Assembly (NCBI GenBank): GCA_035438625.1
Contig: DAORIS010000001.1
Coordinates: 56,104 to 120,103, forward strand
Reading direction: 5' to 3'
Length of the DNA: 64,000 nt
Origin: Minisyncoccota bacterium
GTDB taxonomy: Bacteria > Patescibacteriota > Minisyncoccia > Phycocordibacterales > DAORIS01
The position numbers were made by a program, and so were the translations under genes. Below are positions 1-29,627 of this stretch, in pieces. How positions within the stretch are numbered: position 1 is the stretch's first letter; each line of letters starts with the position of its first letter. A model generated the notes under the pieces. The model was given only the letters and a program-made list of their open reading frames with translations, made no database searches and was not told the origin of the DNA.

Positions 1-581
1 GTTATCTACTTTTAGGTGAAACCTTGACTCTGTTACAAGTCATTGGGGGAGTGTTTATTGTTTTTTCAAGTATTATCCTTACGCTTGAACTTGACTCAGA
101 ATCAGGAATAAAAATAAAAAGGAATATTTTATTTTTAATGCTTTCAGCTGCTGCACTAGTCGGACTATCAGACAGTATGTTTAAGTTCGGTGCGGTAACT
201 TACAATGTTACTCAAGCATTTTTTTGGGAGAATGTCGGATTGTTTATGTTTGGTCTAATTCTTTTATTTTTCAAAAAATATCGATTGAGTTTCATCAGTT
301 TAGTTAAGAAAAGCCCGGGAAGAACTACTGCATTAAACCTGGCTAGTGAGGGATTAACAGCCTTTGGTAACTTTCTTATTAGAGTAGCGATGCTAATTGC
401 ACCCGTTGCATTAGTTACTTCAGTAAGCAGTGTTCAGCCGCTTTTTGTTTTCATTATTAGTGTTTTATTAACAATCTTTTTTCCATTCATTTCTAAGGAA
501 AAAATTTCCAGAAAGCACTTGATACATAAAGTTTCCTGCATTACATGCATTGTCATTGGTGCAATTATATTATCGCTGTAA
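1..581 (+). CDS. DMT/EamA-like transporter, C-terminal part (5' end runs off the window; frame is open to position 1)
   Basis: Frame stays open upstream of the TTG at 24. The 185-aa translation contains about five hydrophobic helices (GGVFIVFSSIILTL, LFMFGLILLFF, IAPVALVTSVSSVQPLFVFIISVLL, ITCIVIGAIILSL), typical of the second EamA repeat. Confidence 0.4.
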   Translation, partial: YLLLGETLTLLQVIGGVFIVFSSIILTLELDSESGIKIKRNILFLMLSAAALVGLSDSMFKFGAVTYNVTQAFFWENVGLFMFGLILLFFKKYRLSFISLVKKSPGRTTALNLASEGLTAFGNFLIRVAMLIAPVALVTSVSSVQPLFVFIISVLLTIFFPFISKEKISRKHLIHKVSCITCIVIGAIILSL

Positions 582-582
582 C

Positions 583-610
583 TTGATTTTTTAATATTAT
601 GTGGTATAAT
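583..610 (+). promoter_or_regulatory. Sigma70-like promoter with extended -10 (TTGATT-16-TGgTATAAT) upstream of the ATP-grasp gene
   Basis: Read directly: cTTGATTttttaatattatgTGgTATAATac, 20 nt before the ATG at 631. Confidence 0.4.
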
Positions 611-630
611 ACACTAACCAAACTAATTTC

Positions 631-1995
631 ATGAGAATTCTATTCATTTCGAAAGATATGATTGCCGGTGACCTCTCGAGAAAACTCAAGGAAGAGGGTC
701 ATGATGTAAAGTTATTTATTGACACAAAAGACGGTAAACACTGTCTTGACGGCTTTGTTAATAAAACTCAAAACTGGAGAAGTGAACTTTCTTGGGTAGG
801 AAAAGAAGGCTTAATAGTATTTGATGATACTGGATACGGAAAAGTTCAAGACAAATTGCGCCAAGAAGGCTACGTTGTTTTTGGCGGATCAGAAATCGGA
901 GAAAAAATCGAGATTGATCGTGAGTACGGTCAGGAAATTTTCGCTCAATACGGAATAAAAACAGTGCCGCTGAAAGATTTTTTTGATGTAAGCGAAGCAA
1001 TTGAGTTCATTAAACAAAATCCAGGGAAGTGGGTTCTAAAACACAACGAACACCTTAATAAGCATTTGACCTACACCGGAATTCTTGATGATGGTAGCGA
1101 TGTAATTGATGTACTTGAAAATCATAGGAAAAATCACACATTGAGTGAAAAAACTATAACTTTACAAAAACTCTTAGAAGGAATTGAGATTGGAGTAGGA
1201 AGATTTTTTAATGGAAATGACTGGGTTGGGCCAATAGAAATGAATATTGAGCATACACGATTGTTTCCAGGTGATGTTGGTCCAATTACTAGTGAAATGG
1301 GTACATTAGCTTGGTATGATGATAGCGATTCAAATAAACTCTTTCAAGAAACACTTGCTAAGCTCAAACCATTCCTAAAAAGCACTGATTACCGTGGGGA
1401 TGTTGCAATTAATTGTATTGTAAATTCAGACGGCGCATTTCCACTTGAAGCAACTATGCGTCTCGGAACTCCTATAGTTCATCTACAATCCGAGATTCAC
1501 TCATCTCCATGGGGAGAATTTCTTCACGCAATAGCTTCCGGGGAAGAATATGATTTAAAGTGGAAAGTTGGATATGGTATTGCTGTTATGATCGCAGTTC
1601 CTCCGTTTCCATACGCACATAAATTGGGAAGATACTCACTAACTGGAGCAAGTATTTTTTGCAACTATAAACAAGGTACGAAAGAGGCCACACATATCCA
1701 TTTTGAAGAAGTTGGCATTAAAGATCACAAGCAATTGTACATTGCCGATTCTAGGGGTTACATTATGTATGCTACAAACATGGGCGACTCCGTAGAACAA
1801 GCAAGATCAAATGTATACAAAATCATTAAAGGGGTAAACATTCCACAAATGTTTTACCGAAACGATATCGGTTATAAATTTATCGTTGAAGATAAGATCA
1901 AGTTACAAAAATGGGGATACTTAAATAAGATTGAAAAAGTTGGGCATGAGAAAGTTAAGGGGGGAATTGAGTTTGATATATCAAAACTTTATTAA
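631..1995 (+). CDS. PurD-like ATP-grasp ligase (phosphoribosylamine-glycine ligase family, divergent)
   Basis: N-terminus [15 protein letters not shown]...EEGHDV matches the PurD pre-ATP-grasp start. [22 protein letters not shown] aligns to PurD [45 protein letters not shown] aligns to PurD [25 protein letters not shown]. 454 aa, longer than PurD. Confidence 0.55.
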   Translation: [454 protein letters not shown]

Positions 1996-2041
1996 CCTTA
2001 AAGCACCTATACTTCTACAGTATGGTGGTACAATTTAATTT

Positions 2042-2413
2042 GTGGAAATTAAAGATAAAATTTTTATAATCCTACTATTTGTTGCTTCAGTTTTAACTAT
2101 TTCTGCTGCATATAGTAGAGTGTACATAACAAAAGATTTTCTATTTACGATAGAAAGAGAGTGTTCTCCAGAGACAGAAAACTGTTTTGGATATGAATCA
2201 GAGGAAGGGGATACTATTTATTATAAGATACTTGAGGCCCCTGCCACACTCATAAACAATCAATGCGGAAACGATATAAGTAGCTGTGAAATTAGCTGCG
2301 ACGAATCAATTAAAAGTTGCAGATATATTTTTTGCACAGATCCCGATGCAGGAAAATATGGCGAGTGTTATTTAAATGAAGAAAACACAGATACACCTGA
2401 AACTTCTTTATGA
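2042..2413 (+). CDS. Small secreted cysteine-rich protein (GTG start; N-terminal signal/TM; 11 Cys)
   Basis: FIILLFVASVLTISAAYS signal-like segment followed by ECSPETENC...NQCGNDISSCEISCDESIKSCRYIFC...GECY. Stop overlaps the start of the next gene (ATGA at 2410-2413). Confidence 0.45.
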   Translation: MEIKDKIFIILLFVASVLTISAAYSRVYITKDFLFTIERECSPETENCFGYESEEGDTIYYKILEAPATLINNQCGNDISSCEISCDESIKSCRYIFCTDPDAGKYGECYLNEENTDTPETSL

Positions 2414-3462
2414 TAGATAAGGAATATGTAACTAAGATTTTATATATTGGATTAGATCCAGAAACTCCAATAGTAATTAATAAAAGGCCAATTCAAGTAA
2501 TAGGTGTTTCAAGCTTAGAATATTTCTCTTATCGTACCCTAAACCCGGCAAATTTATTATTTACCGCAACGTACAGGGCTCAAACAAACAAGATTAACAA
2601 ACGATTCACTCTATTTCTTTTTTGGCTATGGAAAGCAATTAGTTTTCTTTCAACATATCCATATAAAAAATATTCTAATTACCTATCTTTTTGTGTACTA
2701 AATTCTGTTCACATTATAGATGTATCTAACGAAGAGAGTACCCTAGATTACATTACTGAGAATCGCATTGAACTAATAGTAGTTAATAGTTGGTCAATAT
2801 TACCTCAAAAAATTGTTACAGCACCAACATTTGGCACATTAAACATACACCCATCAAAATTACCAATGTATAAAGGTGCATTACCTACACTTTGGTCTTT
2901 AAAAAATGGCGATTCCAAATCAGCCGTAACGTATCAAAAAATTGGCACGTTAATTGACGGTGGAGACATTATTTCTCAGTATGAATTTAATATCGATCCT
3001 ACCGACACTTCGCTGTCAATTGAGTTGAAGATTAGTCAAATTATTAAAAAAACCCTCTTTCAGGATATCCTTAACTATACAAATAAGAAAATTATTCTTA
3101 GACAACAACAAGGAATTGAATCGTGGACTGAAAAATATTCCCAATATATGCAAATTGATTGGGAACATGAAACATCAAAAGAAATTGCAGATAAAACAAT
3201 TTTATACCCTTTTCTGGAGCCTTTTTGTTATTGTTATAGCAGCATAAATGCTAATAAAGTTTACTTTAAGCGTCTTCGTGTACTACCAACACAAGGGAGA
3301 GGTACTTTTCAGCCTGGGCAATATATAATAAGAAATATGGGCATCGTTGTCACTACATATTCAGGAAATTTATTTGCAAGATTATTTATTGATGTACCTT
3401 TAAAAGATAGTCTTTTGCTGCTATTTAACAGTAATAGAAGGTTCGAAAAAACCACATTATGA
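2410..3462 (+). CDS. Formyltransferase-family protein (Fmt/ArnA/PurN-like N-domain plus C-terminal extension)
   Basis: LIVVNSWSILPQKIV...GTLNIHPSKLPMYKGALP matches the formyl_trans_N signature N-[IV]-H-P-S-L-L-P-x-[YF]-[RK]-G. Compare Fmt in this same window: LNIHPSLLPKYRGPSP. Translationally coupled to both neighbours. Confidence 0.6.
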   Translation: MIDKEYVTKILYIGLDPETPIVINKRPIQVIGVSSLEYFSYRTLNPANLLFTATYRAQTNKINKRFTLFLFWLWKAISFLSTYPYKKYSNYLSFCVLNSVHIIDVSNEESTLDYITENRIELIVVNSWSILPQKIVTAPTFGTLNIHPSKLPMYKGALPTLWSLKNGDSKSAVTYQKIGTLIDGGDIISQYEFNIDPTDTSLSIELKISQIIKKTLFQDILNYTNKKIILRQQQGIESWTEKYSQYMQIDWEHETSKEIADKTILYPFLEPFCYCYSSINANKVYFKRLRVLPTQGRGTFQPGQYIIRNMGIVVTTYSGNLFARLFIDVPLKDSLLLLFNSNRRFEKTTL

Positions 3463-5201
3463 CAACTTGCAACTTTCTTCCAGATCCAACATATCTTTTT
3501 TTTAGCTCAGAAGCACCAGTATTACTGTACTATTCACATTTTCCAGCAATAGCAATCACATTACTTCTTGGGTTGTTTGTATTTTTAAGCAATCGTACAC
3601 TTGCAAGTAAATTACTACTTACTATCTCGGTCTTACTTTCTGGATGGACATTACTTAATTTAATTGCATGGACAAACAATGTTGTTGAGAATGTATTATT
3701 TGTATGGTCACTGTTTGGATTAATGTATGGATTAATTTCTGTATTTTCTATATATCTTACTTATGTGTTCATACACAAGAATGATATTCCGTTAAGATAC
3801 AAAATTACATTTGGATTGCTCCTTTTACCAATTTTAATATTTACTTCAACAAAATTTAACCTGAGTGGTTTTTATTATGATCTTTGCGGAGCGTCAGGAC
3901 ATGAAAATGTTTACTTTTTAACGTACTACACTACACTTGGCATCATTTCGATGGTTTGGATTTTTGGACTACTTTTTAAGGCAATTAGAAGGTGCGATAC
4001 GCTTTTTAAAAAGCAAATTTTGCTATTTGGTATCGGTATAGAGTTATTCCTGTCATCTTTCTTTGTATCAAGCTTTCTTGCTAGTTACCTGAACGAGAAA
4101 GGACTTGTGTCTGACTACAGTTTAGAATTCTATGGTTTATTTGGAATGGTGCTGTTTATGGCATTTATTGCATTTATAATTGTTAGATTTAAAGCATTTA
4201 ACGTAAAACTTCTTGGTGCACAAGCCTTGATTGTGGCGCTGATAATTCTTATTGGATCGGAATTTCTATTTGTTGAGAACACATTAAACCAAGTATTAGT
4301 TTCTATTACATTAATTGTTACAGGAATAATCGGCATCGTATTGATTCGTAGTGTTAAGAAGGAAGATTTAGAAAAAGAGAAAATTGAGATGTTAGCAATA
4401 AGTCTTAAGGCAGCAAACGAAAGACTCGAGCGTCTCAACCAAGAGAAGACCGAATTCATCTCGCTTGCAACTCACCAAATCCGTGCTCCACTATCTGCAA
4501 TCAAAGGATACGCTTCACTCATCCTTGAAGGAGACTACGGAGAGACTTCTGATGATATTAAGGACGCAGTTTCAACCATGTACTCTTCTGCGCACAACCT
4601 TGTAGGTGTCGTTGGTGACTATCTCGATATCTCACGAATCGACCTTAACCGGATGAAGTTTAACTTCTCTGATGTTGATCTGAAGCAAACACTCTCAGAG
4701 ATCGTTAAGGAACAGCAACCAAACCTTCGTGGTAAGGGTCTTGAGCTACTCTGGCACCCAGACTCAAGCCTCGCAAAAACTGTTATTTCAGCCGACATTG
4801 GAAAGATTAAGCAGGTTATTAGTAACCTAATCGATAACGCGATTAAATACACTCCAAAGGGATCAATCACGCTTTCTCTTGCTAATGCTGCAAAACTTGA
4901 ACCTGGCACTAAGGGATTCAGGATCACGATCCAAGACACTGGTATCGGACTAAACGAACAGACAATACCTAAACTATTTAAGCGTTTCAGTCGTGCAGAC
5001 AGCGCTCATGAGGTAAACGTACATGGAACTGGTCTTGGACTATACCTCGCACGAAAGATGGTAGAGGCTCATAGTGGAAAAATCTGGGCTGAATCAGATG
5101 GAGAAGGAAAAGGTTCACGATTTATCATTGAACTTCCAGTAAAGGCAGAGCTTAGAGAGAATAGTTTGGCTGATGGAGAAGAGGAAGAAGGCAAAGTATA
5201 A
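3459..5201 (+). CDS. Sensor histidine kinase with polytopic (~7 TM) N-terminal sensor
   Basis: H-box EFISLATHQIRAPLSAIKGYASLI. N-box VISNLIDNAIKYT. G-box GTGLGLYLARKMVEAHSGKIWAESDGEGKGSRF. About seven hydrophobic helices in the first 300 aa. No response regulator adjacent. Confidence 0.85.
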   Translation: MTTCNFLPDPTYLFFSSEAPVLLYYSHFPAIAITLLLGLFVFLSNRTLASKLLLTISVLLSGWTLLNLIAWTNNVVENVLFVWSLFGLMYGLISVFSIYLTYVFIHKNDIPLRYKITFGLLLLPILIFTSTKFNLSGFYYDLCGASGHENVYFLTYYTTLGIISMVWIFGLLFKAIRRCDTLFKKQILLFGIGIELFLSSFFVSSFLASYLNEKGLVSDYSLEFYGLFGMVLFMAFIAFIIVRFKAFNVKLLGAQALIVALIILIGSEFLFVENTLNQVLVSITLIVTGIIGIVLIRSVKKEDLEKEKIEMLAISLKAANERLERLNQEKTEFISLATHQIRAPLSAIKGYASLILEGDYGETSDDIKDAVSTMYSSAHNLVGVVGDYLDISRIDLNRMKFNFSDVDLKQTLSEIVKEQQPNLRGKGLELLWHPDSSLAKTVISADIGKIKQVISNLIDNAIKYTPKGSITLSLANAAKLEPGTKGFRITIQDTGIGLNEQTIPKLFKRFSRADSAHEVNVHGTGLGLYLARKMVEAHSGKIWAESDGEGKGSRFIIELPVKAELRENSLADGEEEEGKV

Positions 5202-5229: not shown

Positions 5230-5754
5230 ATGCTGATAAAGATGCCAAAATATTTTTTACAATTAGGGTTCAGTTTGTATGCGACAATCGACAACATAAA
5301 ACAACCACAGTTTAGAAAATTGCTGTTCATTTTACTGTCTAAATATTTCCAAATATTGTTACTAGTTGCACCTTCTAGAAAATTCTCTATTTATCATCGA
5401 TTAGGTATCATTTCTCTTAGAAATAAGAATTTCAACAAAGCAGCCCATTACTCATCACGTATGGATACTCTTATTTCCTCAGAAGATGAGCATTCACGGT
5501 CATTGCTTTTTCATGCAAACGTTTTATTTGAGAAAGGAGAGTATCATGTGGCACTAAACGAATATTTTAACCTAATTAAAGTATCTAGATTTAAATCACT
5601 AATTCTTTCAAACATTGCATTTACATATGAAATAATTGGCGATGTTAGTAATGCTCAACTTTATGCTAAGAAATCAATTGAATTTTCAGCTTTAGAAAAA
5701 GATTTAGCACATACGATTGATCCATCTGAAAATCTAAAAAATTTGATCCAATAA
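5230..5754 (+). CDS. Hypothetical protein (TPR-like helical C-terminal half)
   Basis: ORF only. AT-rich, weak TPR-like pattern HANVLFEKGEYHVALNEYFNLIK...AFTYEIIGDVSNAQLYAKKSIEF. Confidence 0.3.
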   Translation: MLIKMPKYFLQLGFSLYATIDNIKQPQFRKLLFILLSKYFQILLLVAPSRKFSIYHRLGIISLRNKNFNKAAHYSSRMDTLISSEDEHSRSLLFHANVLFEKGEYHVALNEYFNLIKVSRFKSLILSNIAFTYEIIGDVSNAQLYAKKSIEFSALEKDLAHTIDPSENLKNLIQ

Positions 5755-8937: not shown

Positions 8938-9198
8938 ATGTCCGACACGCCAAACAAGCAAACCAGCCCGTATGACTGGTTTGCTCTAGAATTCACCAAG
9001 CATGTAGAGCGTGGTATAGAGTTAGTTGAGCGAGGTGGTACATCGGAAGATTACACTACTCAACACTACAATCTCATGCATCTAGAAAGTGCGGCGAAGG
9101 AAAAAGGACTTAATGATCAAGCGATTAGTATCGTGAAACATGAAGTCTTTGTGAAGTATGGCTTGATTGGAAAACGAGGATGCCATGGATGCACCTGA
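8938..9198 (+). CDS. Hypothetical small protein (first gene of the G+C-richer island)
   Basis: ORF with a strong SD (aaaggaggt) upstream. No recognised domain. Ends in a C-x-x-C. Confidence 0.35.
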   Translation: MSDTPNKQTSPYDWFALEFTKHVERGIELVERGGTSEDYTTQHYNLMHLESAAKEKGLNDQAISIVKHEVFVKYGLIGKRGCHGCT

Positions 9199-9269
9199 TC
9201 CAGCATAACCGGTTCTCTTTGCGGAGCACCGGTTATTTTTTCCAAATTACTTATTTGAAGGGAGTCTCT

Positions 9270-10121
9270 ATGGTTAGGTTCTTAACAAAAGCAGGTACTG
9301 TTGAACAACATCTTCTAACACTTGTTCGGTATTGTGGCATCCAAGTGCAAAACAACATTGCACCAGTTTCACTTTCTCGAACCCTTCAGGAAAAATGGAT
9401 TGTACGCAATGGGTCTGCACGTGACGGACTACCACCGAAAATGGAAGAGTACGATTTACTCGCAGATCTTGGTTTTTACTCAGACAGCGTAGTTCCATTA
9501 AGGCGGAAAAACGGTGAGGAAATCATCTTCGATCGTCGCATTTTAGTTCTAGGAACCACTCATCTACCTACCGCAAGGTCTCGGATCGAGTTCCTGGATC
9601 ACCAATATTCGAAAATTCCATCCGTTCCTGAAATACACCTTCTCACAAGTAGGAGGCCGATTTCAAAAGAAACAGTAATTGAAACATCCGAAACCTTCTT
9701 CGATAAGTCTCTTCAAACCATCAACGAGTTTCACGAAGACACATTCATGGAATTTGTGAGTAGAAAATTAATGTCTCACAAGACATGTATGTTCACACCG
9801 ATAGTTTCCGAAGGAGCTGATGTTGGCGATGATCGCGCGTACGCAAACACAGGCGACACCATCCTTACATGGCAGCGAAAAAGTGCGGTAGTTAAAGGAA
9901 ATTTCTTAATTTTCTCTAGCCAACCAACACTTGGGTATCAACTACTTCTGTGTAAGCGACTTCTACACAATCTGTGCCCAGACGTCAGATTATACGGAAT
10001 TGGACCAGCTGCTCATCCACTTATCCCGATGAAATATTTCCTTGATGTAATCGCTAGACAACTGTTTGAAGAAATTCAATACAGAGACTGTCTAGGGACA
10101 CAAACAACATCTGCGAAGTAA
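9270..10121 (+). CDS. Hypothetical protein (start chosen at MVRFL, which has an SD; the ORF is open from 9180)
   Basis: ORF in the G+C-richer segment. No recognised motifs. Followed by a hairpin plus T-run at 10132-10168. Confidence 0.4.
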   Translation: MVRFLTKAGTVEQHLLTLVRYCGIQVQNNIAPVSLSRTLQEKWIVRNGSARDGLPPKMEEYDLLADLGFYSDSVVPLRRKNGEEIIFDRRILVLGTTHLPTARSRIEFLDHQYSKIPSVPEIHLLTSRRPISKETVIETSETFFDKSLQTINEFHEDTFMEFVSRKLMSHKTCMFTPIVSEGADVGDDRAYANTGDTILTWQRKSAVVKGNFLIFSSQPTLGYQLLLCKRLLHNLCPDVRLYGIGPAAHPLIPMKYFLDVIARQLFEEIQYRDCLGTQTTSAK

Positions 10122-15236: not shown

Positions 15237-16307
15237 ATGATTTCAGACGTCGTCAAAGTATTCCTGCCATTCATCATTTCATTTTGTATTGGTATTGCGA
15301 TCACTCCATTTTGGACACACTATTTGTATGCAAATAAACTATGGAAAAAGAAGGCGGGAAAACTAGCGTCTGATGGAACATCAGCAGTAGTCTTTAATGA
15401 AATCCACAAAGACAAAGAAGTTGGAACACCTCGTCTTGGTGGAGTAATTATTTGGGCAAGTGCAATTATCACCATCGCACTCTTTTGGTTATCAAGGTAC
15501 GTTCTCCCTGAAGGATTAGCAGCAAAGATAGACTTCCTCAGCCGAAGTCAGACATGGATTCCACTCGTTGCACTCATCATCGGAGCACTCATTGGATACG
15601 CTGACGACATGATGGAAATCAAAGGAAGTCGTGATCATCACGCTGGAGGACTATCACTTCGAAAGCGCCTCGCTATTGTTACCGCAATTGGACTATCTGT
15701 TGGAGCATGGTTCTTTTACAAACTTGATGTCGTTTCAATCGGCATTCCATTTTATGGACCACTTTTTGTTGGATTTTTAATCATTCCGATATTTATTTTC
15801 GTACTCCTTGCCATTTACGCGTCAGGTGTGATTGATGGAATTGATGGACTTTCTGGTGGAGTATTTGCATCTGCGTTTGCTGCATATGCTGGTATCGCAT
15901 TCTTCCAAGACCAATATGACATTGCAGCATTTTCAGCAACCATTACAGGAGGAATACTTGCATTCTTATGGTTCAACATTCCACCAGCCAGGTTCTACAT
16001 GACAGAGACAGGTAGCATGGCACTCACCATTACCCTTGGAATTGTCGCCTTCATGACCGACTCACTTGGAGGGGGGATAGGTCTTCTTATTCTACCTATT
16101 GTTGCACTTCCACTTGCTGTCACTGTCTTTACAAACGTCCTTCAGGTACTTTCAAAAAGGATCAGAGGAAAAAAGATCTTTCATGTTGCACCCATTCACC
16201 ATCATTTTGAAGCTCTGGGCTGGCCTTCGTATAAAGTGACGATGAGATACTGGATTATTAGTGTTGTTTCAGCGATTTTCGGTATTGTGATCGCTCTTTT
16301 GGCGTAA
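15237..16307 (+). CDS. mraY: Phospho-N-acetylmuramoyl-pentapeptide transferase
   Basis: GTPRLGGVIIW, DDMMEIKG...GLSLRKRL, GVIDGIDGLSGG and HHHFE motifs. Ten TM helices. Confidence 0.9.
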   Translation: MISDVVKVFLPFIISFCIGIAITPFWTHYLYANKLWKKKAGKLASDGTSAVVFNEIHKDKEVGTPRLGGVIIWASAIITIALFWLSRYVLPEGLAAKIDFLSRSQTWIPLVALIIGALIGYADDMMEIKGSRDHHAGGLSLRKRLAIVTAIGLSVGAWFFYKLDVVSIGIPFYGPLFVGFLIIPIFIFVLLAIYASGVIDGIDGLSGGVFASAFAAYAGIAFFQDQYDIAAFSATITGGILAFLWFNIPPARFYMTETGSMALTITLGIVAFMTDSLGGGIGLLILPIVALPLAVTVFTNVLQVLSKRIRGKKIFHVAPIHHHFEALGWPSYKVTMRYWIISVVSAIFGIVIALLA

Positions 16308-16558
16308 ATGGATGTTTAAGGTGGGTTCGAGTCCCTGACCCCCCAGCAAGCAAAGCTGAGCGGGTTAACAAGACAGGTGGTGGTGTAACGATTAGAGGTG
16401 AGCACCGTCTGGATCAACAAACTGCATCCAAATCAACAGATCGTTAGGTGAATCAAAGTTTTGGTTGTGGATAGCCCAATCTTTCTCCATACTGGAGATA
16501 TCACACACTGTTTATTCCCAAAAGGCATGTAGAAAATTTAACAGACATCACTACCGAA

Positions 16559-16825
16559 GTGTTCCTGGACCATCAGTATTTCCACAGATTGATCATAAAA
16601 CACATGTTGGATTTAGGATTAAAACATTCAGATGGGAAACCAATTGATCAATTTAATACTATGATCAGAGAAAGGTTTGAGGGAATTCCAGATGGTTCAA
16701 AATGCTATAAGCCAAAACACCTACACATACACCTTGTTCCTGACAAGGAAGGAGTTGATAGGTTTGTACTCGATGAAAGTGCAGTACACATTAATATTCA
16801 GAAAATTTCGCTATCTGTAAAGTGA
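16559..16825 (+). CDS. Hypothetical protein
   Basis: ORF only. Lies in the junction zone after mraY. Confidence 0.25.
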   Translation: MFLDHQYFHRLIIKHMLDLGLKHSDGKPIDQFNTMIRERFEGIPDGSKCYKPKHLHIHLVPDKEGVDRFVLDESAVHINIQKISLSVK

Positions 16826-17397
16826 TTCTAAGAATAACTACACAACGCATTCCCAAATTAACACTACGTAGAAAAGGTATACTACCTGGACCACACATGC
16901 ACCACATACAACTTATTAACTTCGAACATATCAAAGAGAGCGAAGCGTCAACATACACCTTTCGTGAAGCTGTCCGGGCAATAGTATTTGATGCAAATAA
17001 AAAGATAGCGTTACTTCATGCAAAAAAAGATAATTATTTCAAACTACCAGGTGGTGGCATAGAAAAAGATGAGGAAAAAATTGAAGCTTTAAAACGTGAA
17101 TGCAGGGAAGAGCTGGGATGTGAAATTGATATATTTTGTGATCTTGGAATTGTTACCGAAAACAGAAGTAAAAACAAAATGAAGCATATCTCATACTGTT
17201 ACATGGCACATGTTATAGGAGAAAAAGGAACACCACATATGACCGAGAGTGAAATTCGAGAAGGATTCCATGTTATCTGGATTCCAATTACAGAAGCTAT
17301 CTTAAAGTTAGAATCTGTTACAAACACCACATATCCTGGGTCATACATGGTCGCACGAGACCTCGCGTTTCTAAAAATAGGTTCTCATATTTCTTAA
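16822..17397 (+). CDS. NUDIX hydrolase (second copy; true start may be the internal Met at ~16897)
   Basis: Nudix box GGGIEKDEEKIEALKRECREELGC. Confidence 0.6.
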   Translation: MILRITTQRIPKLTLRRKGILPGPHMHHIQLINFEHIKESEASTYTFREAVRAIVFDANKKIALLHAKKDNYFKLPGGGIEKDEEKIEALKRECREELGCEIDIFCDLGIVTENRSKNKMKHISYCYMAHVIGEKGTPHMTESEIREGFHVIWIPITEAILKLESVTNTTYPGSYMVARDLAFLKIGSHIS

Positions 17398-17533
17398 GCA
17401 CTTAGGACAAGAACTTCGAGTAAGCTGTTGCCAAGATTGGTAATATCTGGTACTGTTTTTGCAGCATATCGTTAAATTTTTGGTTACGTTTGTAGCCGAT
17501 TAGCGAAAGCTGTCCTTTGTTTGGAGGCCTGCT

Positions 17534-17854
17534 ATGATTCGTCGCATTCTTGCGTCTCTGTGCATCTCCGTCCTTTCTGTCCTCTTCATCGTCGGCGCTA
17601 CACCCTCAACGGCTCAAGCAGCTGCGACCCAGGGGTATAACTACTCCTGTGGGGTTGATAATCCCAACAGCACGCAGTGTAGGCGCCAACTGTACCGTGA
17701 AATGCGGAGTTGCCAGCAGAAGATCGTCCAGGGTACACTCGTGTACTCCTGCGAACCAGTCAAAAAGGCCCTACTCGTATCAAATGATGTCGAGATAATG
17801 TTGAGCACGTTCGGCAGTGAAAACAGCAACACCGACGTTACCCCGGCCAGTTAG
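17534..17854 (+). CDS. Small secreted cysteine-containing protein (G+C-richer island)
   Basis: Signal peptide LASLCISVLSVLFIVGATPSTAQAAAT. Four Cys in the mature part. Confidence 0.4.
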   Translation: MIRRILASLCISVLSVLFIVGATPSTAQAAATQGYNYSCGVDNPNSTQCRRQLYREMRSCQQKIVQGTLVYSCEPVKKALLVSNDVEIMLSTFGSENSNTDVTPAS

Positions 17855-18007
17855 TCTCGGCGCAAAGCCAGGCCAAGCCTGGAAGTCAGTAGTTATTCCA
17901 AACTACTGACTTTTTTGTTCGCAGGACAAACAGTGTAGATATTGCTTTTTTTAATATTTGTGGTATAAATATTTTAAGAGTTCTCTGACAAACGTCAGGA
18001 ATATACG

Positions 18008-18970
18008 TTGAAATTGATTCCACCCTCTAACTCGGGAGTTGTCATGTACAACCAGAAACCAGTAATTGTTGCTGTAATTCTCTTTGTGATATGTGCCATA
18101 ACAATAGGTATGGCAACAGTGATGAGCTACCGCCATAGACCCAAACTTACACTCTCAGACAACTCAGTTGTTGTCGGTAAGTCTGTGTCAGACATCGGTC
18201 GTTATGGCGAACCTGGATATGAATACCTACAGGTTCGCGACCTGGAAGCCAAGCGAGTGTATAAGACACTCACCATGTCGCCCGTAAGTGCAGATCCAGC
18301 GAAACTTGCACCATTGTTTGAGGACTTGATTCGTAGTGAACTTAAGAAGCGTCCAGCTGTTGCACACTATGTAACAGTGAAAATGTTTCAAGAGCTACGA
18401 TCAAAAGTTGCCCTCGTCATTGCAAGTGATAGTGGAATGACACGAGAAAATTATGTCAGCCACTTTCCAGGAGCAAGACCACTACCACCAGAATCTGTTG
18501 TGATGCCGGAAGGCAAAACACCTGAAATGCTTTTCAACGAATTTTACGATGAGAAGTTATCCTCAGGCGTACAACTGCGTTCAATCTGTCTCGATCCAAA
18601 GTCCGTTGCGCTATCTTTCAATTGGTATCGTCTTCCAGATGATGTCCGGCAAGGGTTACTCGATAAGAGTGACCAATACCCAGCATCATTTCTTGGAATG
18701 AACGTTGCGTCAGCGCGAGGTTTCGTGTTTTATCGAAACCCAAACTACGAAGCGCTCATGAAAAAGCAAGCTGAGGTTCTATGCTTCAGTGGTAGCTTCA
18801 TTGTTGAAAGCAACGCACTCGTAACTGGACCAGACGGCAAAGAAAATTATGACAGATATCCTCTGAACATGACCTTTGTGTTTGATCCTGAGACGAAAGA
18901 ATGGTGGCTGGAACATGTCGAGCGAACCGTAAGTGTAGTTGCGAGTAACCAAAAAATCATGGTCAATTAA
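18008..18970 (+). CDS. Hypothetical N-terminally membrane-anchored protein
   Basis: TM helix VIVAVILFVICAITIGMATV followed by ~280 aa with no recognised motif. G+C-richer. Confidence 0.4.
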   Translation: MKLIPPSNSGVVMYNQKPVIVAVILFVICAITIGMATVMSYRHRPKLTLSDNSVVVGKSVSDIGRYGEPGYEYLQVRDLEAKRVYKTLTMSPVSADPAKLAPLFEDLIRSELKKRPAVAHYVTVKMFQELRSKVALVIASDSGMTRENYVSHFPGARPLPPESVVMPEGKTPEMLFNEFYDEKLSSGVQLRSICLDPKSVALSFNWYRLPDDVRQGLLDKSDQYPASFLGMNVASARGFVFYRNPNYEALMKKQAEVLCFSGSFIVESNALVTGPDGKENYDRYPLNMTFVFDPETKEWWLEHVERTVSVVASNQKIMVN

Positions 18971-19481
18971 GGAGGTCATCGTGTTGAGACAGAAACTCAA
19001 GTCTCTCTTCTTCATGACATTCCCAATCCTGATTGGATTATTACTATTTGGTGTTGCTTTATACAAAGCATCCCACCTAGAAGAATTCGGTCGGTCGGTC
19101 GCTGAATTACCCCTCATTACAAGTGAGACCTTACCAATCTTAACGATTGGAGTCCCAATGGTTGAAGGGTTTCTCGGGATACTGATTCTCATAACTCCCG
19201 CTCACAGGGGAGTGTTAGTCGGTATACCGACCAGCGCACTGTTTCTTGTATTCATTACGTTTCACTTTTGGAGGATTTACGCCGGACTTATAACACCGTG
19301 CAGCTGTGGAATTCCATTGTTTGGCATTCCACCAGAATACCAATCGCATGCGATGATCATCTTCTGCACTATTGTTTTGAACCTCTGCCAACTGTGGTGG
19401 TGGTTCAAAGAAACACCACCCTCAAAGAGCACCACGAAAGAACGTGGTACTCAGAAAGGTCTCTATGAAGGTGCGGTGTAA
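18939..19481 (+). CDS. DoxX/MauE-like 4-TM membrane protein with CxC-G motif
   Basis: Four hydrophobic helices. LITPCSCGIPLFGIPPE resembles MauE/DoxX-family membrane proteins. Weak assignment. Confidence 0.35.
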   Translation: MRVTKKSWSIKEVIVLRQKLKSLFFMTFPILIGLLLFGVALYKASHLEEFGRSVAELPLITSETLPILTIGVPMVEGFLGILILITPAHRGVLVGIPTSALFLVFITFHFWRIYAGLITPCSCGIPLFGIPPEYQSHAMIIFCTIVLNLCQLWWWFKETPPSKSTTKERGTQKGLYEGAV

Positions 19482-20325
19482 TAAACACGCGTTTACACTT
19501 TCTGAACTACTTGTTGTTATCGGAATCATCGGAATTCTTTTTGCGCTCGTCGTACCTGCACTTGGCATCGCACGACGACACGCACAAAGAACCAAATGTT
19601 TGAGTAATTTAAGGCAGATTGCTCAGGCCACGATGGTGTACGTAACAAATCATCGTAGACTTCCAGTTGGTTCGATGATGATCAATTGGCCAACAAATGA
19701 TCCGCCGACCACTGCACAGTTCGACGCCTTACCACTACCATTCTTCGAGAGTCTGCTCCAACAAACAACCACCTTGGATTTGAAAAAAATCCAACCCTGG
19801 TCCGAGGTGACGAAGAATGTCCACACTGCAAAGATCCTGCTCTGTCCGAACGACGAGCTGGAATCTAAGTCAGTAGATGAACAGGTGAGTCAGTTTGTGT
19901 ATGCATACACATCTTCCAGGCCTACACTCTTTGACTCACACAGGAAAAACGTAGTGAGTTACGAAGTTAATTATGGTCTGGTGAACACCACATCCAGAAC
20001 TGAACTCCAGGATAAGTGGTACAACGGTAACCCATCCAAAGTTAAGCGCCCTACATCCATGGTTCTCTGTGGAGAAGGAATGGGGATTGGTGAGTTTAAA
20101 CACACCTGGGTTCCTGATGTGCAATTTCCCGAAAAGAGTTTGACGTTTGCTGATGTATACAAAGGTAACGGAGTCATGCAGTATTCAGAACTCCGGACAA
20201 TAAATCCCTTTGATATGAAACGACATGGAGGCAAGAGTAATTTTGTCTTCCTGGACGGTCACGCTGAAACAGTGACTATTAACGAGAAGGATCTCTCACA
20301 GTATGATCTGCTTCAGGAAAGATGA
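19465..20325 (+). CDS. DUF1559-type protein: prepilin-like N-terminal cleavage/methylation helix plus C-terminal H-X9-DG motif
   Basis: KHAFTLSELLVVIGIIGILFALVVPALGIARRHAQRTKCLSNLRQIAQATMVY matches the PVC-superphylum DUF1559 N-terminus (RGFTLIELLVVIAIIAIL...[24 protein letters not shown]). C-terminal HGGKSNFVFLDGH is exactly H-x9-DG. Confidence 0.75.
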   Translation: MKVRCNKHAFTLSELLVVIGIIGILFALVVPALGIARRHAQRTKCLSNLRQIAQATMVYVTNHRRLPVGSMMINWPTNDPPTTAQFDALPLPFFESLLQQTTTLDLKKIQPWSEVTKNVHTAKILLCPNDELESKSVDEQVSQFVYAYTSSRPTLFDSHRKNVVSYEVNYGLVNTTSRTELQDKWYNGNPSKVKRPTSMVLCGEGMGIGEFKHTWVPDVQFPEKSLTFADVYKGNGVMQYSELRTINPFDMKRHGGKSNFVFLDGHAETVTINEKDLSQYDLLQER

Positions 20326-20360
20326 CCACGTCAGTTCTTGTTTGTTCTTTTTTACAGCTT

Positions 20361-20400
20361 AGGCCCCAGACGCATATGCGCCCGGGGCTTTTCTTTTCTT
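20361..20400 (+). terminator. Rho-independent terminator after the DUF1559 gene
   Basis: ggcccc-agacgcatatgcgcc-cggggc followed by ttttcttttctt. The inner cgcatatgcg is itself palindromic. Confidence 0.5.
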
Positions 20401-20520
20401 GTAAACCCAATCTTTTTGCTAGTATATCGAACTGAAGATTTAGATGTATATGTAAAGGAGATAATAGAAAAAGACCCATACGCGATTGTGTCATAAACAC
20501 TTCGCATACGGGTCAATTTG

Positions 20521-20811
20521 TTAGTTGGATGCCGCGGTTGACATCCATGAGAAATCGGGCGGCACTTTAACGAACACCATTTCACCAGGAATTGTCGATC
20601 CATTAATTTCCTGGATCAGGTCAGTTACTTCTCCATCGGTAACCATGTTGTGTTGTCTTGCATCTCGCAATGCTGAGACAAACTCAGCCTTAGACCAACA
20701 TTCAATGGTGCAATTACGATTTCGAAAGCGAATCCACCCATGCAGACCACACGATTCACATATTTCCAGTCGAGCAGGGTACTTAGATTCACGATTGTCG
20801 TATCCTTCCAT
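20521..20811 (-). CDS. Small zinc-ribbon-like protein (Met start at 20811 with AAGGAG SD)
   Basis: MEGYDNRESKYPARLEICESCGLHGW...NRNCTIECW has two Cys pairs. The + strand ORF 20525..20863 on the opposite strand has junk-like composition. Confidence 0.3.
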   Translation of the reverse strand: MEGYDNRESKYPARLEICESCGLHGWIRFRNRNCTIECWSKAEFVSALRDARQHNMVTDGEVTDLIQEINGSTIPGEMVFVKVPPDFSWMSTAASN

Positions 20812-20937
20812 TGGGATCTCCTTGTTGATTTTTTTGGTGCGATCTAAGTATATTATAGCATAATTAAGCAATTTGTCAAATATAATACAACATAAAATCT
20901 GTGGATTTTTAAAGTTCTTACATAATGCCGTACAATA

Positions 20938-22071
20938 GTGCAAATGGCCCGTTCAGTAACAAAGGCAGTACAGAAGAAAGGAGCCGATAAAGGCTTGTTC
21001 TTTTTAGTTATCGGACTTGTTGTTGTTGGCTATATTATTTTCTTTTCTGCATCACTTGGACTCCTTGGGCGCGACGAAACAACCATTGGTGGCATCGCAC
21101 TGAAACAAGCAGTTGTGGGTATCCTCGGTGGGGCAGTAGCACTCTTTGTCTGTTCAATTATTCCCACAGACCACATTAGGAGGTTTTCGCCTTGGATATT
21201 CATCGGAGCGATTTTTGTAAACATGCTCATATTTATTCCTGGTATGTCTATTAGCGCTGGAGGTGCAACACGTTGGCTTGATTTGGGTTTTATCTCATTC
21301 CAGCCAGGAGAAATGCTCAAGTTTGCAGCTGTCTTGTTTTATGCAGCACTCCTTCGTCGTAACCGTGACGAAATGGATACATTTAAAGGAGGATTACTAC
21401 CACTCCTTGCAATTGGAGGCATTACAACCGGCATACTTCTTCTCCAGCGAGACACGGACCCAATTATTGGACTTGCACTAGTCCTCATGTTTTTCGTCTC
21501 AGGTGGTCGTTGGAAAGATCTTATAATCGTTGCACTAATCGCTTGTGTTGGTATTGGAGGATTGTTATATACCCGTCCGTATGTTTTGGATCGTGTAAAA
21601 ATATTTATTGACCCATCACAAGACTCACTTGGTTCCGGATACCAAGTACAGCAATCACTGATTGCCATTGGTAACGGAGGATTTTGGGGCCAAGGATTTG
21701 GCCAAAGCGTACAAAAGTTTAAATATCTTCCAGAGCCTGTCGGAGACTCGATATTTGCTGTTGCGGGAGAAGAATTTGGCTTTGCTGGGGCAGCATCCTT
21801 GGTAATTCTATATCTGGTACTTTCTGTTCGACTTTCAACACTTGCGTCACGCACAAGAGATGCTTTTGGAAGAGCTGTCATTATCGGCTTCTTAACCCTG
21901 ATTGTCGGCCAGTCATTTATGAATATTGGGGCTATGGTCAGCATTTTGCCACTAACCGGAGTACCACTTGCATTCATCAGCCACGGAGGAACAGCCCTTC
22001 TATTTGCTCTGGCTGAAATCGGCATTATATTAGGCATTTCTAAGGGGAAATCGTCGAGTTCTGCCGCATAG
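20938..22071 (+). CDS. ftsW: SEDS-family peptidoglycan glycosyltransferase FtsW/RodA
   Basis: SEDS pattern PGEMLKF, LLLQRDTDP and IAIGNGGFWGQGFGQSVQKFKYLPEPVGDSIFAVAGEEFGF. Confidence 0.85.
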   Translation: MQMARSVTKAVQKKGADKGLFFLVIGLVVVGYIIFFSASLGLLGRDETTIGGIALKQAVVGILGGAVALFVCSIIPTDHIRRFSPWIFIGAIFVNMLIFIPGMSISAGGATRWLDLGFISFQPGEMLKFAAVLFYAALLRRNRDEMDTFKGGLLPLLAIGGITTGILLLQRDTDPIIGLALVLMFFVSGGRWKDLIIVALIACVGIGGLLYTRPYVLDRVKIFIDPSQDSLGSGYQVQQSLIAIGNGGFWGQGFGQSVQKFKYLPEPVGDSIFAVAGEEFGFAGAASLVILYLVLSVRLSTLASRTRDAFGRAVIIGFLTLIVGQSFMNIGAMVSILPLTGVPLAFISHGGTALLFALAEIGIILGISKGKSSSSAA

Positions 22072-22094
22072 CGACTGGATGATATACTTGGCCA

Positions 22095-23225: not shown

Positions 23226-23226
23226 T

Positions 23227-25912: not shown

Positions 25913-26058
25913 CGTATGATCAAAACTGTATTTTCACTCATCGTCTTAATGGCAGTCCTACAGTTATATTTTAATATTGATGTAATCGCGTATGCAGAAC
26001 ATGGACTTGCAACAGCGAGAGCAAAAGCTCCTGGAGTAATTGAAGACATACAAGCGTC

Positions 26059-27480: not shown

Positions 27481-27814
27481 CCTCGGCTAGCCCAAGGCAT
27501 AGGTCGTAAAAGATATATTGTGCGACACTCTCATACCACTTCCCCAGGGCATCAAAAAGTTATCCACAGTTGAGATTTTTTACACCTCTCTACTCTACTT
27601 AGTAATTACAGATAAAAATATCGCGCGAATTTTCTCGCGCGATACTGACATCCATTTCTATTGAGCAGAGGACGGGTCGGCATCCATGCCTAGACTAGGA
27701 TCACCTCCCTTCTACGAGGTTATCAGGGAAGCCTCGTACGACATGGTCCGGTAAATAAGTGGCATTTGCATAAGCCCACCAACCTTCCTGCTTACCAAGC
27801 AAAGGAACTTGCAC

Positions 27815-27848
27815 AGAAAACCCCCCGAACGTTCGGGGGGTTTTCTTG
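27815..27848. terminator. Bidirectional Rho-independent terminator (ccccccgaac-gttcgggggg flanked by A-run and T-run)
   Basis: gaaaaccccccgaacgttcggggggttttct. Confidence 0.7.
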
Positions 27849-29616: not shown

Positions 29617-29627
29617 ACCTACACTTT

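Follow-up and report, generated by a model that had tools for sequence, protein, structure and literature searches.

A PurD-fold ligase, EamA permease and membrane sensor kinase module recurring in CPR bacteria, with a formyltransferase in its variable slot

The two enzymes discussed here have their nearest described relatives in PurD and in Fmt and ArnA. For PurD we follow the residue roles given for the glycine, PRA and ATP sites (PMC2978367, PMC8880213). PRA decays with a half-life near 5 s (PMC2978367), which means that a PurD without PurF makes little sense, and Parcubacteria are generally without genes for de novo nucleotide synthesis (PMC4508563). An earlier note on the 64-kb stretch of DNA analysed here (the window) compared a PurD-like ligase gene and a formyltransferase gene with purine steps 2 and 3, and suggested that the pair ligates and formylates another amine. 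We find that positions 24-5201 hold this genome's form of a module seen in many ultra-small CPR bacteria of the Paceibacteria type, the group to which the source organism belongs. The note could not recognise the arrangement as a described system, and our literature search found no published description of a ligase-permease-kinase module.

Four open reading frames, co-directional on the + strand, occupy 631-5201. They encode a PurD-fold ATP-grasp ligase (631-1995, 454 aa), a small Cys-rich protein with a GTG start (2042-2413, 123 aa), an Fmt/ArnA-like formyltransferase (2410-3462, 350 aa) and a polytopic sensor histidine kinase (3459-5201, 580 aa), the last forming the 3' end of the module. 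The overlaps described earlier, at 2410-2413 and 3459-3462, are both ATGA, and the sole intergenic gap is the 46 bp between ligase and small gene (1996-2041). No terminator-like site was found on the + strand within the junctions of these genes, the single + strand match (1504-1517, 5 pairs) lying inside the ligase frame. Gene spacing suggests that the four genes are co-transcribed. A sigma-70-like promoter match with an extended -10 (583-610, + strand, TTGATT-16-TGnTATAAT, 10 of 12 positions) lies between EamA and ligase, 20 nt 5' of the ligase ATG, but the region holds no more such sites than its shuffles do (17 found against 23.6 expected) and it is therefore only suggestive. The four-gene unit proposed earlier does recur in relatives; however it left out the EamA/DMT permease gene directly upstream, which is also part of the unit, making it larger than four genes. 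The 3' part of this gene is at 24-581 (+ strand) and its 5' end lies beyond the window start; on the source contig the full gene (L001:8995-9924) encodes 309 aa, matches PF00892 and scores 242 bits on an EamA profile made from the relatives.

The ligase is PurD-like but divergent, as had been proposed. It matches GARS_A (40 bits) and falls just short for GARS_C (34.4 against a cutoff of 34.8), the profile search did not find GARS_N, and it scores 103 bits on the PurD equivalog model TIGR00877, for which the cutoff is 288. With its AlphaFold model (pLDDT 85.7) the top 15 matches in a PDB fold search are all PurD, at a TM of about 0.7 and 16-20% identity. The ATP ligands (E94, R97, K137, E186 and E273) and the carboxylate-binding Arg (R277) are retained. 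The ligands for the glycine amine and PRA are partly lost, E292 being replaced by I282 and D290 (human D295) by S/T280; the B-loop GLAAGK and R13/E14 are missing, and Thr replaces the Mg-binding Asn of the ExN motif throughout the family. There are more than 1400 homologues in CPR, the best 120 of which are 53-72% identical, and the start codon at 631 is backed by M1, L4 and F5, conserved in the family alignment. The protein has a PurD fold, apparently with a new function, and is not a GAR synthetase.

The formyltransferase matches PF00551 (Formyl_trans_N) with 67 bits. The closest equivalog is Fmt (TIGR00460, 98 bits against a cutoff of 201.5), with PurN well behind (41 against 150), and the model (pLDDT 92.3) matches the folds of Fmt and ArnA-FT at a TM of about 0.55-0.6, which bears out the earlier assignment to the Fmt/ArnA type rather than PurN. 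The catalytic Asn-His-Asp (N145, H147, D183) is invariant across the family. A helical, partly hydrophobic insertion at about residues 46-97 stands where the aligned Fmt sequences have the QPDRPxGRG loop, and in the same alignment the LQxEGKKxM motif is not present. It is a two-domain Fmt/ArnA-like protein and belongs to a family of its own, whose members are about 345 aa long. It is a second paralogue, as there is a normal housekeeping PriA-Def-Fmt operon at 60594-63932, with its canonical Def-Fmt pair at 62452-63932.

With a PurD fold and GARS_A/GARS_C matches in one protein, Fmt as the nearest equivalog and fold of the other, and FolD encoded two genes upstream of EamA, one could propose genuine purine steps 2 and 3 by divergent PurD and PurN proteins, or a second initiator Met-tRNA formyltransferase. 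We find this scarcely credible. GAR synthetase is rejected for the ligase on the TIGR00877 score, the missing GARS_N and the loss of the PRA site, the B-loop and two glycine-site acidic residues; PurN is rejected on its score, and a second Met-tRNA Fmt on the TIGR00460 score, the Def-Fmt pair and the replaced loop and missing motif. Nor is there another pur gene among the window genes scanned. That both proteins fall below the PurD and PurN equivalog cutoffs agrees with the earlier view that they are not purine enzymes.

In the small protein we count 8 cysteines instead of the 11 first reported; it starts with a hydrophobic segment that is either a signal peptide or a signal anchor; the 8-Cys domain is probably extracytoplasmic. 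A word-indexed search gave no match besides the protein itself. Its positional homologues comprise 27 distinct sequences with the pattern R..DY..CD..E.CF..Y..A..C..C..C..C..C..C, and such a candidate membrane-anchored ectoprotein is encoded in 23 of the 78 species reached via the ligase, while 13 of the 26 formyltransferase loci that could be assessed have it nearby. The kinase has clear HisKA (E=1.6e-12) and HATPase_c (E=2.6e-27) domains. Among 67 family members, conservation reaches 90% or more at H339 and in the N, G1, F and G2 boxes. It was first described as a 7-TM sensor kinase, and polytopic it is, but the number is not clearly seven: a crude hydropathy scan gives about 8-9 hydrophobic segments, followed by a coiled coil and the two kinase domains. 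Cys4 and Cys143 are conserved in the membrane part, and there is almost no extracytoplasmic domain. As stated earlier there is no response regulator nearby, and no receiver domain was found anywhere in the 64-kb window.

We looked at 118 non-redundant related loci, with 96 kinase genes, and at 78 non-redundant species reached via the ligase. The genes of the four-gene neighbourhood co-occur in relatives, and finding the arrangement again in this way indicates more than chance. The kinase family has a density of 15.6 genes per 100 kb in the first 2 kb around the ligase, falling to 0 at 8-10 kb, and in the 78 species the figures for EamA are 16.2 within 2 kb and 0 beyond 4 kb. Of the ligase-centred loci, 52 extend 4 kb or more in both directions; 42 of these have the kinase and 30 have EamA no further than 4 kb away. 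The three genes stay together in at least four different orders or orientations. It is thus the polytopic kinase and EamA that are the ligase's constant partners, with the formyltransferase less constant than EamA. No conserved gene was found 3' of the kinase in related loci. DnaK/DnaJ, TrpRS, AspRS and NUDIX genes also recur near the module, many CPR gene orders being broadly syntenic.

The pairing of ligase and formyltransferase, taken in the earlier note as the core of the system, is not conserved: the formyltransferase is present in only 2 of the 78 ligase-centred species, while some slot enzyme is present in 32 and no recognised one in 46. Seen from the formyltransferase the association is closer. 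The kinase is directly downstream in 24 of 32 assessable CPR loci, and of 26 formyltransferase-centred loci 24 have ligase or EamA within 3 kb and 16 have the ligase itself, which is directly 5' in L095, L097, L098 and L101; in L008 and L009 the small gene, formyltransferase and kinase are retained in that order, with the ligase not within 8 kb.

The position directly 5' of the kinase is in fact a variable slot, as a rule coupled to the kinase in translation. Of the 96 kinases, 22 are immediately preceded on their own strand by a formyltransferase gene, 10 by SET, 7 by GAMT, 4 by GNAT, 3 by a PrmA-like and 3 by an agmatinase-like gene; for 29 there is no labelled gene, and gaps to the kinase are mostly -4 to +30 bp. 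SET, GNAT and PrmA occupants were identified by Pfam; the GAMT homologue aligns over its full length with rat GAMT (E=1.7e-42), and the agmatinase-like hydrolase scores 173.7 on TIGR01230 (cutoff 174.3). The enzymes can also be stacked, as formyltransferase-SET-SET-GAMT in L099, formyltransferase-SET-kinase in L098, L101 and L104, and EamA-U260-formyltransferase-small gene-SET-kinase in L118, a pattern that suggests tailoring in several steps. At least six N-modifying enzymes are interchangeable in this position. One of them is the formyltransferase, whose closest tie is to the kinase.

On a rough NJ tree of 82 kinases the slot occupant switched about 31 times, so the slot could in part be an insertion hot spot, and it is conceivable, if distinctly unlikely, that the formyltransferase and small gene have no functional link to the ligase and merely sit in a syntenic block. 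The low count among ligase-centred species and the broad CPR synteny fit this, as does GC3, which is 0.231 for the formyltransferase against 0.29-0.39 for most genes, and 0.23 for small gene plus formyltransferase against 0.29-0.32 for ligase, EamA and kinase, suggesting later acquisition of these two. However every occupant with an assignable activity acts on an amino or guanidino nitrogen, the occupants are co-oriented and tightly coupled to the kinase and sometimes stacked, the ligase or EamA is nearly always close to the formyltransferase and the ligase is directly upstream in at least four loci, and no flanking repeats or mobile-element genes were found at the locus.

Proteins are the classical methylation targets of SET and PrmA-type enzymes, whose presence in the slot fits a protein target better than a small metabolite, and RimI-type GNATs are protein modifiers too. 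The slot enzymes (SET, PrmA-like, GNAT, GAMT/Rmt2-like, Fmt-like) might then mark a Lys, Arg or N-terminal nitrogen of a protein such as the kinase or a partner and so tune signalling, with the ligase a RimK-like enzyme that attaches an amino acid to a protein; the frequent 4-bp overlap of slot gene and kinase suggests one-to-one co-production, and the family-specific C-terminal helix of the ligase (KLxxWGYL) could be a docking element. We consider this improbable, as the GAMT homologue aligns full-length with a small-molecule enzyme and an agmatinase-like ureohydrolase at the equivalog cutoff also occupies the slot, pointing to small guanidino or amino compounds. To our knowledge no such ureohydrolase acts on proteins and no member of the PurD fold modifies them.

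Also against a protein target is the non-CPR branch of the formyltransferase family, in which the gene lies in an operon with the order u218, adenylating ligase, formyltransferase, α-oxoamine synthase, with a convergent MatE gene. Judged by its genes this locus appears to be a small-molecule pathway yielding a free amine, with MatE as exporter, and the presence together of another carboxylate-activating ligase, the amine-generating synthase and the exporter gives independent support for ligation and formylation of another amine, still the best reading.

An Arn/Pmr-like remodelling of envelope amines under sensor control is also to be weighed, and we think it unlikely. The ligase and slot enzymes would modify an amine of a lipid head group or of a peptidoglycan or glycan precursor, EamA would be a flippase like the ArnE/F-type DMT proteins, and the intramembrane-sensing kinase would read the state of the envelope. 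CPR bacteria scavenge lipids, the formyltransferase fold fits ArnA-FT almost as well as Fmt and has the hydrophobic helical insertion, the kinase is polytopic with hardly any external domain, genes for peptidoglycan and cell division prevail in the window, Ddl lies 2.6 kb downstream, and in L009 an LPG_synthase_C gene adjoins EamA. However closeness to Ddl/Mur genes is not kept in the relatives' loci, the conserved module members include no glycosyltransferase, aminotransferase or lipid-carrier enzyme, and the non-CPR pathway appears soluble. As far as we know, all characterised agmatinase and GAMT homologues have free small molecules as substrates.

We tentatively favour a reading in which a small metabolite with an amine group is ligated and N-capped, in a process coupled to transport and to sensing at the membrane. 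The cytoplasmic ligase is predicted to use ATP to join a carboxylate to the amine of a small, basic, amino-acid-derived metabolite, its substrates no longer being glycine and phosphoribosylamine. The slot enzyme would cap or edit a free nitrogen of the same compound, in this genome probably by N-formylation with 10-formyl-THF, FolD being encoded nearby. EamA would carry the compound or a precursor across the membrane, and the kinase would monitor the compound or its effect on the envelope, possibly with the Cys-rich ectoprotein as co-sensor. We infer that the enzymes share a substrate and that this is a small molecule, as well as which way transport runs and to what the kinase responds, the functional links being drawn from shared gene neighbourhood.

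With regard to known systems, the ligase shares with PurD the full fold and the ATP ligands but is without the PRA site, the B-loop and two acidic residues that bind glycine or its amine. The formyltransferase likewise keeps the catalytic residues of Fmt, but has the QPDRPxGRG loop replaced and the LQxEGKKxM motif missing. As it is one swappable slot enzyme, purine steps 2 and 3 offer no more than a loose chemical analogy.

The five genes of window positions 1-5201 all lie on the + strand. The first is the 3' part (24-581) of an EamA/DMT permease gene, which is complete, at 309 aa, in the source-contig locus (L001:8995-9924; handles of this form denote related loci that we fetched). It is followed by genes for the PurD-like ATP-grasp ligase (454 aa, 631-1995), a small protein of 123 aa whose N-terminus has a hydrophobic segment and whose tail is Cys-rich (2042-2413), the formyltransferase (350 aa, 2410-3462) and a polytopic histidine kinase of 580 aa (3459-5201). 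The last four had been put forward in the earlier note as an operon with two overlapping junctions, and both overlaps are indeed present, each as ATGA. The single gap among these four genes is 46 bp, the promoter scan gave a good match to an extended -10 promoter at 583-610, and the terminator scan gave no + strand terminator-like site within any junction. Neither promoter-like nor terminator-like sites are enriched in the region relative to shuffled sequence, and co-transcription of the four genes is plausible as judged from the gene layout. The small protein, to which 11 cysteines had been attributed, has 8. The JGI public call of the PurD-like protein begins at Met10 (window 658), but we prefer the start at 631 because the family conserves M1, L4 and F5. 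Two genes upstream of the EamA gene there is a gene for FolD, the supplier of 10-formyl-THF. Directly 3' of the kinase gene is an ORF of 174 aa (5230-5754) with weak TPR-like matches and a GC3 of 0.24; none of the 122 fetched loci contains a homologue of it, and it may be an orphan gene or non-coding sequence.

The remainder of the window carries the usual CPR housekeeping genes, including peptidoglycan/cell-division genes, aminoacyl-tRNA synthetases, DnaB and RRF. Two PBP-type transpeptidases and two MreB paralogues fall within 16 kb (42555-44270, 48750-50408, 51554-52615 and 57034-58044), in a region dense in cell-wall and cell-shape genes. The MurA ORF (59071-60582, +) overlaps a - strand ORF (59061-59585), and its N-terminal 60 or so residues match an XRE/HipB-type helix-turn-helix (TIGR03070, E=4e-11, residues 6-60); either MurA is genuinely fused to an HTH domain here or its start codon has been placed too far 5'. 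The cumulative GC skew is highest at about 16-22 kb of the window and declines steadily from there, and gene orientation is mostly + until about 36 kb and mostly - after it, with DnaB at 33737-35128; the pattern at about 16000-36000 may be a feature of replication architecture. For seven sizeable ORFs, of 213-473 aa, Pfam gives no match at E<=1e-8 (9180-10121, 18008-18970, 19444-20325, 26059-27480, 39855-40709, 50674-51600 and 55537-56178).

With regard to the ligase, the suggestion that it is distinct from PurD is well supported, and we conclude that it is a paralogue of PurD and not PurD itself. It scores 102.8 bits with TIGR00877 against an equivalog cutoff of 288. In Pfam it matches GARS_A, with GARS_C just under cutoff, and GARS_N is absent both from it and from all of the best 120 homologues listed. 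These 120, from a family with more than 1400 cluster representatives, are 53-72% identical to the ligase, and every organism name that the source supplies among them is of a CPR lineage. The predicted structure (pLDDT 85.7) has the full four-domain PurD fold, and the top 15 Foldseek matches in the PDB are all GAR synthetases (PurD), with TM of 0.67-0.74 and identity of 16-20%. When the family profile is compared with every solved PurD, the alignment begins only at about residue 72, the N-terminal 70 residues being unalignable.

The roles of PurD residues were taken from PMC8880213 and PMC2978367, using A. aeolicus PurD numbering, which could be checked against the printed alignment. The ATP ligands E100, K143 and E192 are kept (ligase E94, K137 and E186) and K103 is replaced conservatively (R97). 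E283 of the ExN motif is kept (E273), and these five general ATP-grasp positions are conserved in the ligase; the Mg-binding Asn of the motif, N285, is a Thr (T275) that is invariant in the family. The carboxylate-binding Arg, R287, is kept (R277). Among the glycine ligands D212 is replaced conservatively (E207) and E292 is lost (I282). Also lost is D290 (human D295), for which binding of the PRA amine and a role as base have been proposed; position 280 is Thr in this protein and mostly Ser in the rest of the family. Another sequence takes the place of the B-loop GLAAGK, and R13/E14 in the GGREHA loop of human PurD, the proposed PRA/phosphate site (PMC2978367), have no counterpart, the sequence there being ISKDMIAGD. 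With most ATP residues and the carboxylate Arg kept, and several residues for glycine and PRA lost, the ligase is probably still an ATP-dependent carboxylate-activating enzyme, but for another acid and another acceptor.

The ligase thus resembles PurD in its four-domain fold, ATP-grasp nucleotide ligands and substrate-carboxylate Arg, and in several genomes a folate-type formyltransferase directly follows it, as in PurD then PurN. It differs in having a permease and a sensor kinase as partners rather than pur genes, and in an additional C-terminal helix (KLxxWGYL) peculiar to the family, in which L425, W428 and G429 are invariant. The scanned window genes include no pur genes, and neither do the precomputed Pfam labels for the upstream 10 kb; the host lineage is generally without de novo nucleotide (purine) synthesis (PMC4508563).

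The formyltransferase is likewise outside the known equivalogs. Its scores are 98.4 bits against a cutoff of 201.5 for TIGR00460 (Fmt), 40.8 against 150 for TIGR00639 (PurN), and 70 against 777 and 37 against 238 for the sugar/ArnA models NF005998 and NF005755. PurN is a single-domain protein of about 200 aa, whereas this protein of 350 aa has a C-terminal domain, and its model (pLDDT 92.3) predicts a two-domain Fmt/ArnA-like fold. The likeness to Fmt and the ArnA formyltransferase lies in the Asn-His-Asp N-domain and the C-terminal β-barrel domain, and these enzymes are the closest in both fold and sequence. All 20 family members compared have the catalytic N145, H147 and D183. By sequence search the family is a separate one of about 70 proteins of about 345 aa, canonical Fmts appearing only at E>=1e-16. 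Where aligned Fmts have the QPDRPxGRG loop, it has about 50 inserted residues that are helical and in part hydrophobic, and it lacks the basic C-domain motif LQxEGKKxM; the loop is said to be for tRNA recognition in Fmt, and the motif reportedly also binds tRNA (2FMT work).

There is a canonical PriA-Def-Fmt operon at 60594-63932, with Def above its cutoff and, after def, a formyltransferase (63042-63932) that scores 164.4 bits with TIGR00460 in an alignment starting at residue 1. The genome therefore has its own housekeeping initiator formyltransferase, and the protein encoded at 2410-3462 is a second, specialised paralogue. Unlike Fmt it is not adjacent to def, which has its separate Fmt partner; unlike ArnA it has no dehydrogenase domain, and there are no sugar-nucleotide genes beside it in any locus examined. 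The succession of a PurD-like protein and a formyltransferase does invite comparison with purine steps 2 and 3, and the fold of the second protein with an additional initiator Fmt, but we rejected both on the equivalog scores, the residue mapping and the separate Def-Fmt pair, and a true purine or initiator function for these genes is scarcely credible.

For study of the neighbourhood in relatives there were 122 loci in total, comprising 80 species-level loci found via the ligase, 33 metagenome loci found via the formyltransferase and nine fetched earlier. All ORFs in them were scored with purpose-built profiles, and counts were taken over 78 non-redundant ligase-centred species, or over 118 non-redundant loci with 96 kinase genes. 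Among the 52 ligase-centred loci with at least 4 kb on each side, a polytopic kinase is within 4 kb of the ligase in 42 and an EamA gene in 30. At 0-2 kb from the ligase there are 15.6 kinase and 16.2 EamA genes per 100 kb, and by 8-10 kb both have fallen to zero. The three genes are found together in at least four different orders and orientations, which points to selection for their proximity more than to inherited gene order.

The arrangement thus recurs in relatives, and the conserved unit differs from that envisaged in the earlier note, which had centred on the ligase/formyltransferase pairing. The position directly 5' of the kinase gene is a variable slot. The same-strand gene directly upstream of the 96 kinases is a formyltransferase in 22 cases, a SET gene in 10, a GAMT homologue in seven, a GNAT gene in four, and a PrmA-like methyltransferase or an agmatinase-like ureohydrolase in three each, with the distance to the kinase gene mostly -4 to +30 bp. 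The SET, GNAT and PrmA-like proteins were identified by Pfam, the agmatinase-like protein scores 173.7 with TIGR01230 against a cutoff of 174.3, and the GAMT homologue matches rat GAMT over its full length at E=1.7e-42. Slot enzymes may also be stacked, as formyltransferase>SET>SET>GAMT (L099), formyltransferase>SET>kinase (L098, L101 and L104) or EamA>U260>formyltransferase>small protein>SET>kinase (L118), U260 being a family described below.

GAMT (guanidinoacetate N-methyltransferase) is regarded mainly as an animal enzyme of creatine synthesis. There are full-length homologues in Paceibacteria at L018:8278-8997 and in loci L014, L034, L061, L063, L078, L080 and L099; in seven of these loci the gene is 1-8 bp upstream of a polytopic kinase gene, the contig of L099 ending before any kinase.

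In CPR loci centred on the formyltransferase, the kinase gene is downstream on the same strand in 24 of 32, a ligase or EamA gene is within 3 kb in 24 of 26, and the ligase gene itself lies that close in 16 of 26. It is directly upstream of the formyltransferase gene in L097, L098 and L101, and also in L095. However, only two of the 78 ligase-centred species have the formyltransferase, and 32 have some slot enzyme. The pairing is thus real and recurrent, but a minority configuration, and the formyltransferase is one of several enzymes that can take the kinase-linked slot.

We suggest, tentatively and at somewhat short of an even chance, that the module of ligase, permease, kinase and slot enzyme is a small-molecule pathway of ligation and N-capping, coupled to the permease and the membrane sensor kinase. 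It would act on an amine- or guanidino-bearing compound derived from an amino acid, and the Cys-rich ectoprotein is possibly a co-sensor with the kinase. A limit on this reading is the change of ExN to ExT, which makes the ligase activity only putative. Several observations count against it. On a neighbour-joining tree of 82 kinases the slot type changes about 31 times, against a permutation mean of 40, which gives some signal of co-evolution of slot type and kinase that is not decisive; the small-protein and formyltransferase genes have a lower GC3 than their neighbours; and in some loci small protein>formyltransferase>kinase is kept without the ligase. The slot changes and the lower GC3 would also fit an insertion hot spot whose genes have no functional link, which we think improbable. 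Mobile-element insertion of the small-protein and formyltransferase genes was also considered; the GC3 dip is the only hint of it, the repeats found being short, imperfect and of the chance kind, with integrase and transposase genes absent, and it was rejected.

The kinase has HisKA and HATPase_c domains, both above Pfam cutoff, and across 67 homologues conservation is at least 90% for H339 and for the N, G1, F and G2 boxes. C4 and C143 are invariant in the family, in segments predicted to face outward. It had been noted that there is no response regulator nearby, and the 64 kb indeed contains no receiver domain at E<=1. Across the fetched loci no conserved genes were found 3' of the kinase. 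In some relatives stand-alone small receiver-domain genes adjoin the module, either directly after the kinase or beside EamA (L065:7719-8096, L069:21046-21300 and L081:13545-13931; beside EamA in L067 and L071-L073). Two paralogous polytopic kinases flank the ligase in L002 (6254-7906 and 11007-12635), and also in L060 and L097; in L002 the gene before one of them is for a small Cys-rich protein and that before the other is SET, which suggests that there are two sub-types of kinase.

A word-indexed search with the small protein gave no match besides itself, but it is not an orphan, as positional homologues from the fetched loci form a real family with a conserved Cys framework, present in 23 of the 78 ligase-centred species. 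It was considered as the precursor of a graspetide or other RiPP and rejected, since the ligase, with its PurD fold, does not belong to the graspetide clade of ATP-grasp enzymes, and what the small protein conserves is its Cys framework, beside a TM anchor, where a precursor would combine a conserved leader with a variable core; a survey of CPR graspetides makes no mention of PurD (PMC8939145). Anti-phage defence was also rejected, as PADLOC gives only a weak, generic HATPase match for the kinase (E=2e-7) and none for the others. The U260 proteins, of about 260-290 aa, recur within the module (L050:2511-3305 and L054:8232-8999, both on the - strand, and 13 further loci), are usually encoded between EamA and the small protein or just 5' of the kinase, and have no match in Pfam, NCBIfam, PDB sequences or PADLOC.

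Six distant members of the formyltransferase family, at 33-36% identity (L113-L116, L119 and L120; some are from gut metagenomes), lack all of the CPR partners. Their operon, for example L116:5776-11670, runs from u218, an unknown protein of 218 aa, through a stand-alone amino-acid-adenylation/DltA-like ligase and the formyltransferase to an α-oxoamine synthase of the BioF/Kbl/SPT/CqsA family, and in all four loci that reach far enough (L113-L116) it is followed by a convergent gene for a MatE exporter. It appears to be an uncharacterised small-molecule cluster, in which, going by the gene content, a carboxylate would be activated, a free amine made and the product exported. Both in the CPR module and, unrelated to it, in this operon, the formyltransferase family is thus accompanied by a putative exporter and by a ligase predicted to activate a carboxylate. 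It should be said that SET and PrmA-type enzymes usually act on proteins, which counts against ligation and N-capping of a small molecule and would fit a module for protein modification; with the formyltransferase family also in an operon of the small-molecule kind, we find protein modification quite improbable.

All components of the module are of known superfamilies, and biosynthetic enzymes with an exporter and a sensor kinase are a known kind of arrangement. What is distinctive is a PurD-derived ligase where purine synthesis is generally absent, together with EamA, a polytopic kinase and swappable N-modifying enzymes that include a bacterial GAMT homologue. We found no description of this module in the literature, a Lipocone paper and the graspetide survey not being relevant. 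CPR bacteria (Patescibacteria) are a large share of bacterial diversity, mostly uncultured, with very small genomes and few regulatory or biosynthetic systems. The conservation of the ligase, at 53-60% identity, across many lineages that generally lack purine synthesis implies an important role in these cells, and sensor kinases, of which the module's is one, are few in these genomes. There is also a difficulty in annotation, as source names of homologues show that automated labels often call the ligase 'phosphoribosylamine--glycine ligase', which could imply a step of purine synthesis that CPR genomes probably do not have. The module is a concrete and testable unit from which it may be possible to learn how these episymbionts handle or detect basic metabolites of amino-acid origin. 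As soluble proteins by prediction, each with a confident model, the ligase and formyltransferase could be expressed heterologously to look for their substrates, with no need for a culture of the organism.

With regard to known systems, the Arn/Pmr system has a transiently N-formylated amino sugar, the DMT-type flippase ArnE/F and two-component control, and the module resembles it in having a folate-dependent N-formyltransferase, a DMT-superfamily membrane protein and a sensor kinase. On that likeness the module could be for remodelling of envelope amines. However it has no conserved equivalents of ArnB, ArnC, ArnD or ArnT, the ligase has no Arn counterpart, and the slot may hold methyl- or acetyltransferases or a ureohydrolase instead; we see envelope remodelling as unlikely.

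The module may also be a CPR-wide system of chemical signalling or host sensing, which we put forward as a speculation that is unlikely to be right. The PurD-derived ligase would build a small amide scaffold, and the N-capping enzymes, which can be exchanged and stacked (formyl, acetyl, methyl, guanidino-methyl and de-amidino), would give lineage-specific 'dialects', with the product exported by EamA and detected by the polytopic kinase with the Cys-rich ectoprotein as co-receptor. To our knowledge no small-molecule communication system has been described for Patescibacteria, and if this reading is true it would be the first. The nearest parallels are CqsA/CqsS and LqsA/LqsS, in which an enzyme making a small amino-ketone signal is encoded beside a polytopic sensor kinase, with Agr similar in outline. 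The comparison is of the 'works like' kind, the module being known here from its genes. The module differs from these systems in having no α-oxoamine synthase, the chemistry being instead putative ATP-grasp ligation and N-capping, in having no adjacent receiver or phosphotransfer partner in the window, and in its dedicated permease and Cys-rich ectoprotein. It resembles them in having biosynthetic enzymes encoded beside a multi-pass kinase without a large periplasmic domain, and the non-CPR relatives of its formyltransferase are in operons with α-oxoamine synthases of the BioF/SPT/CqsA family.
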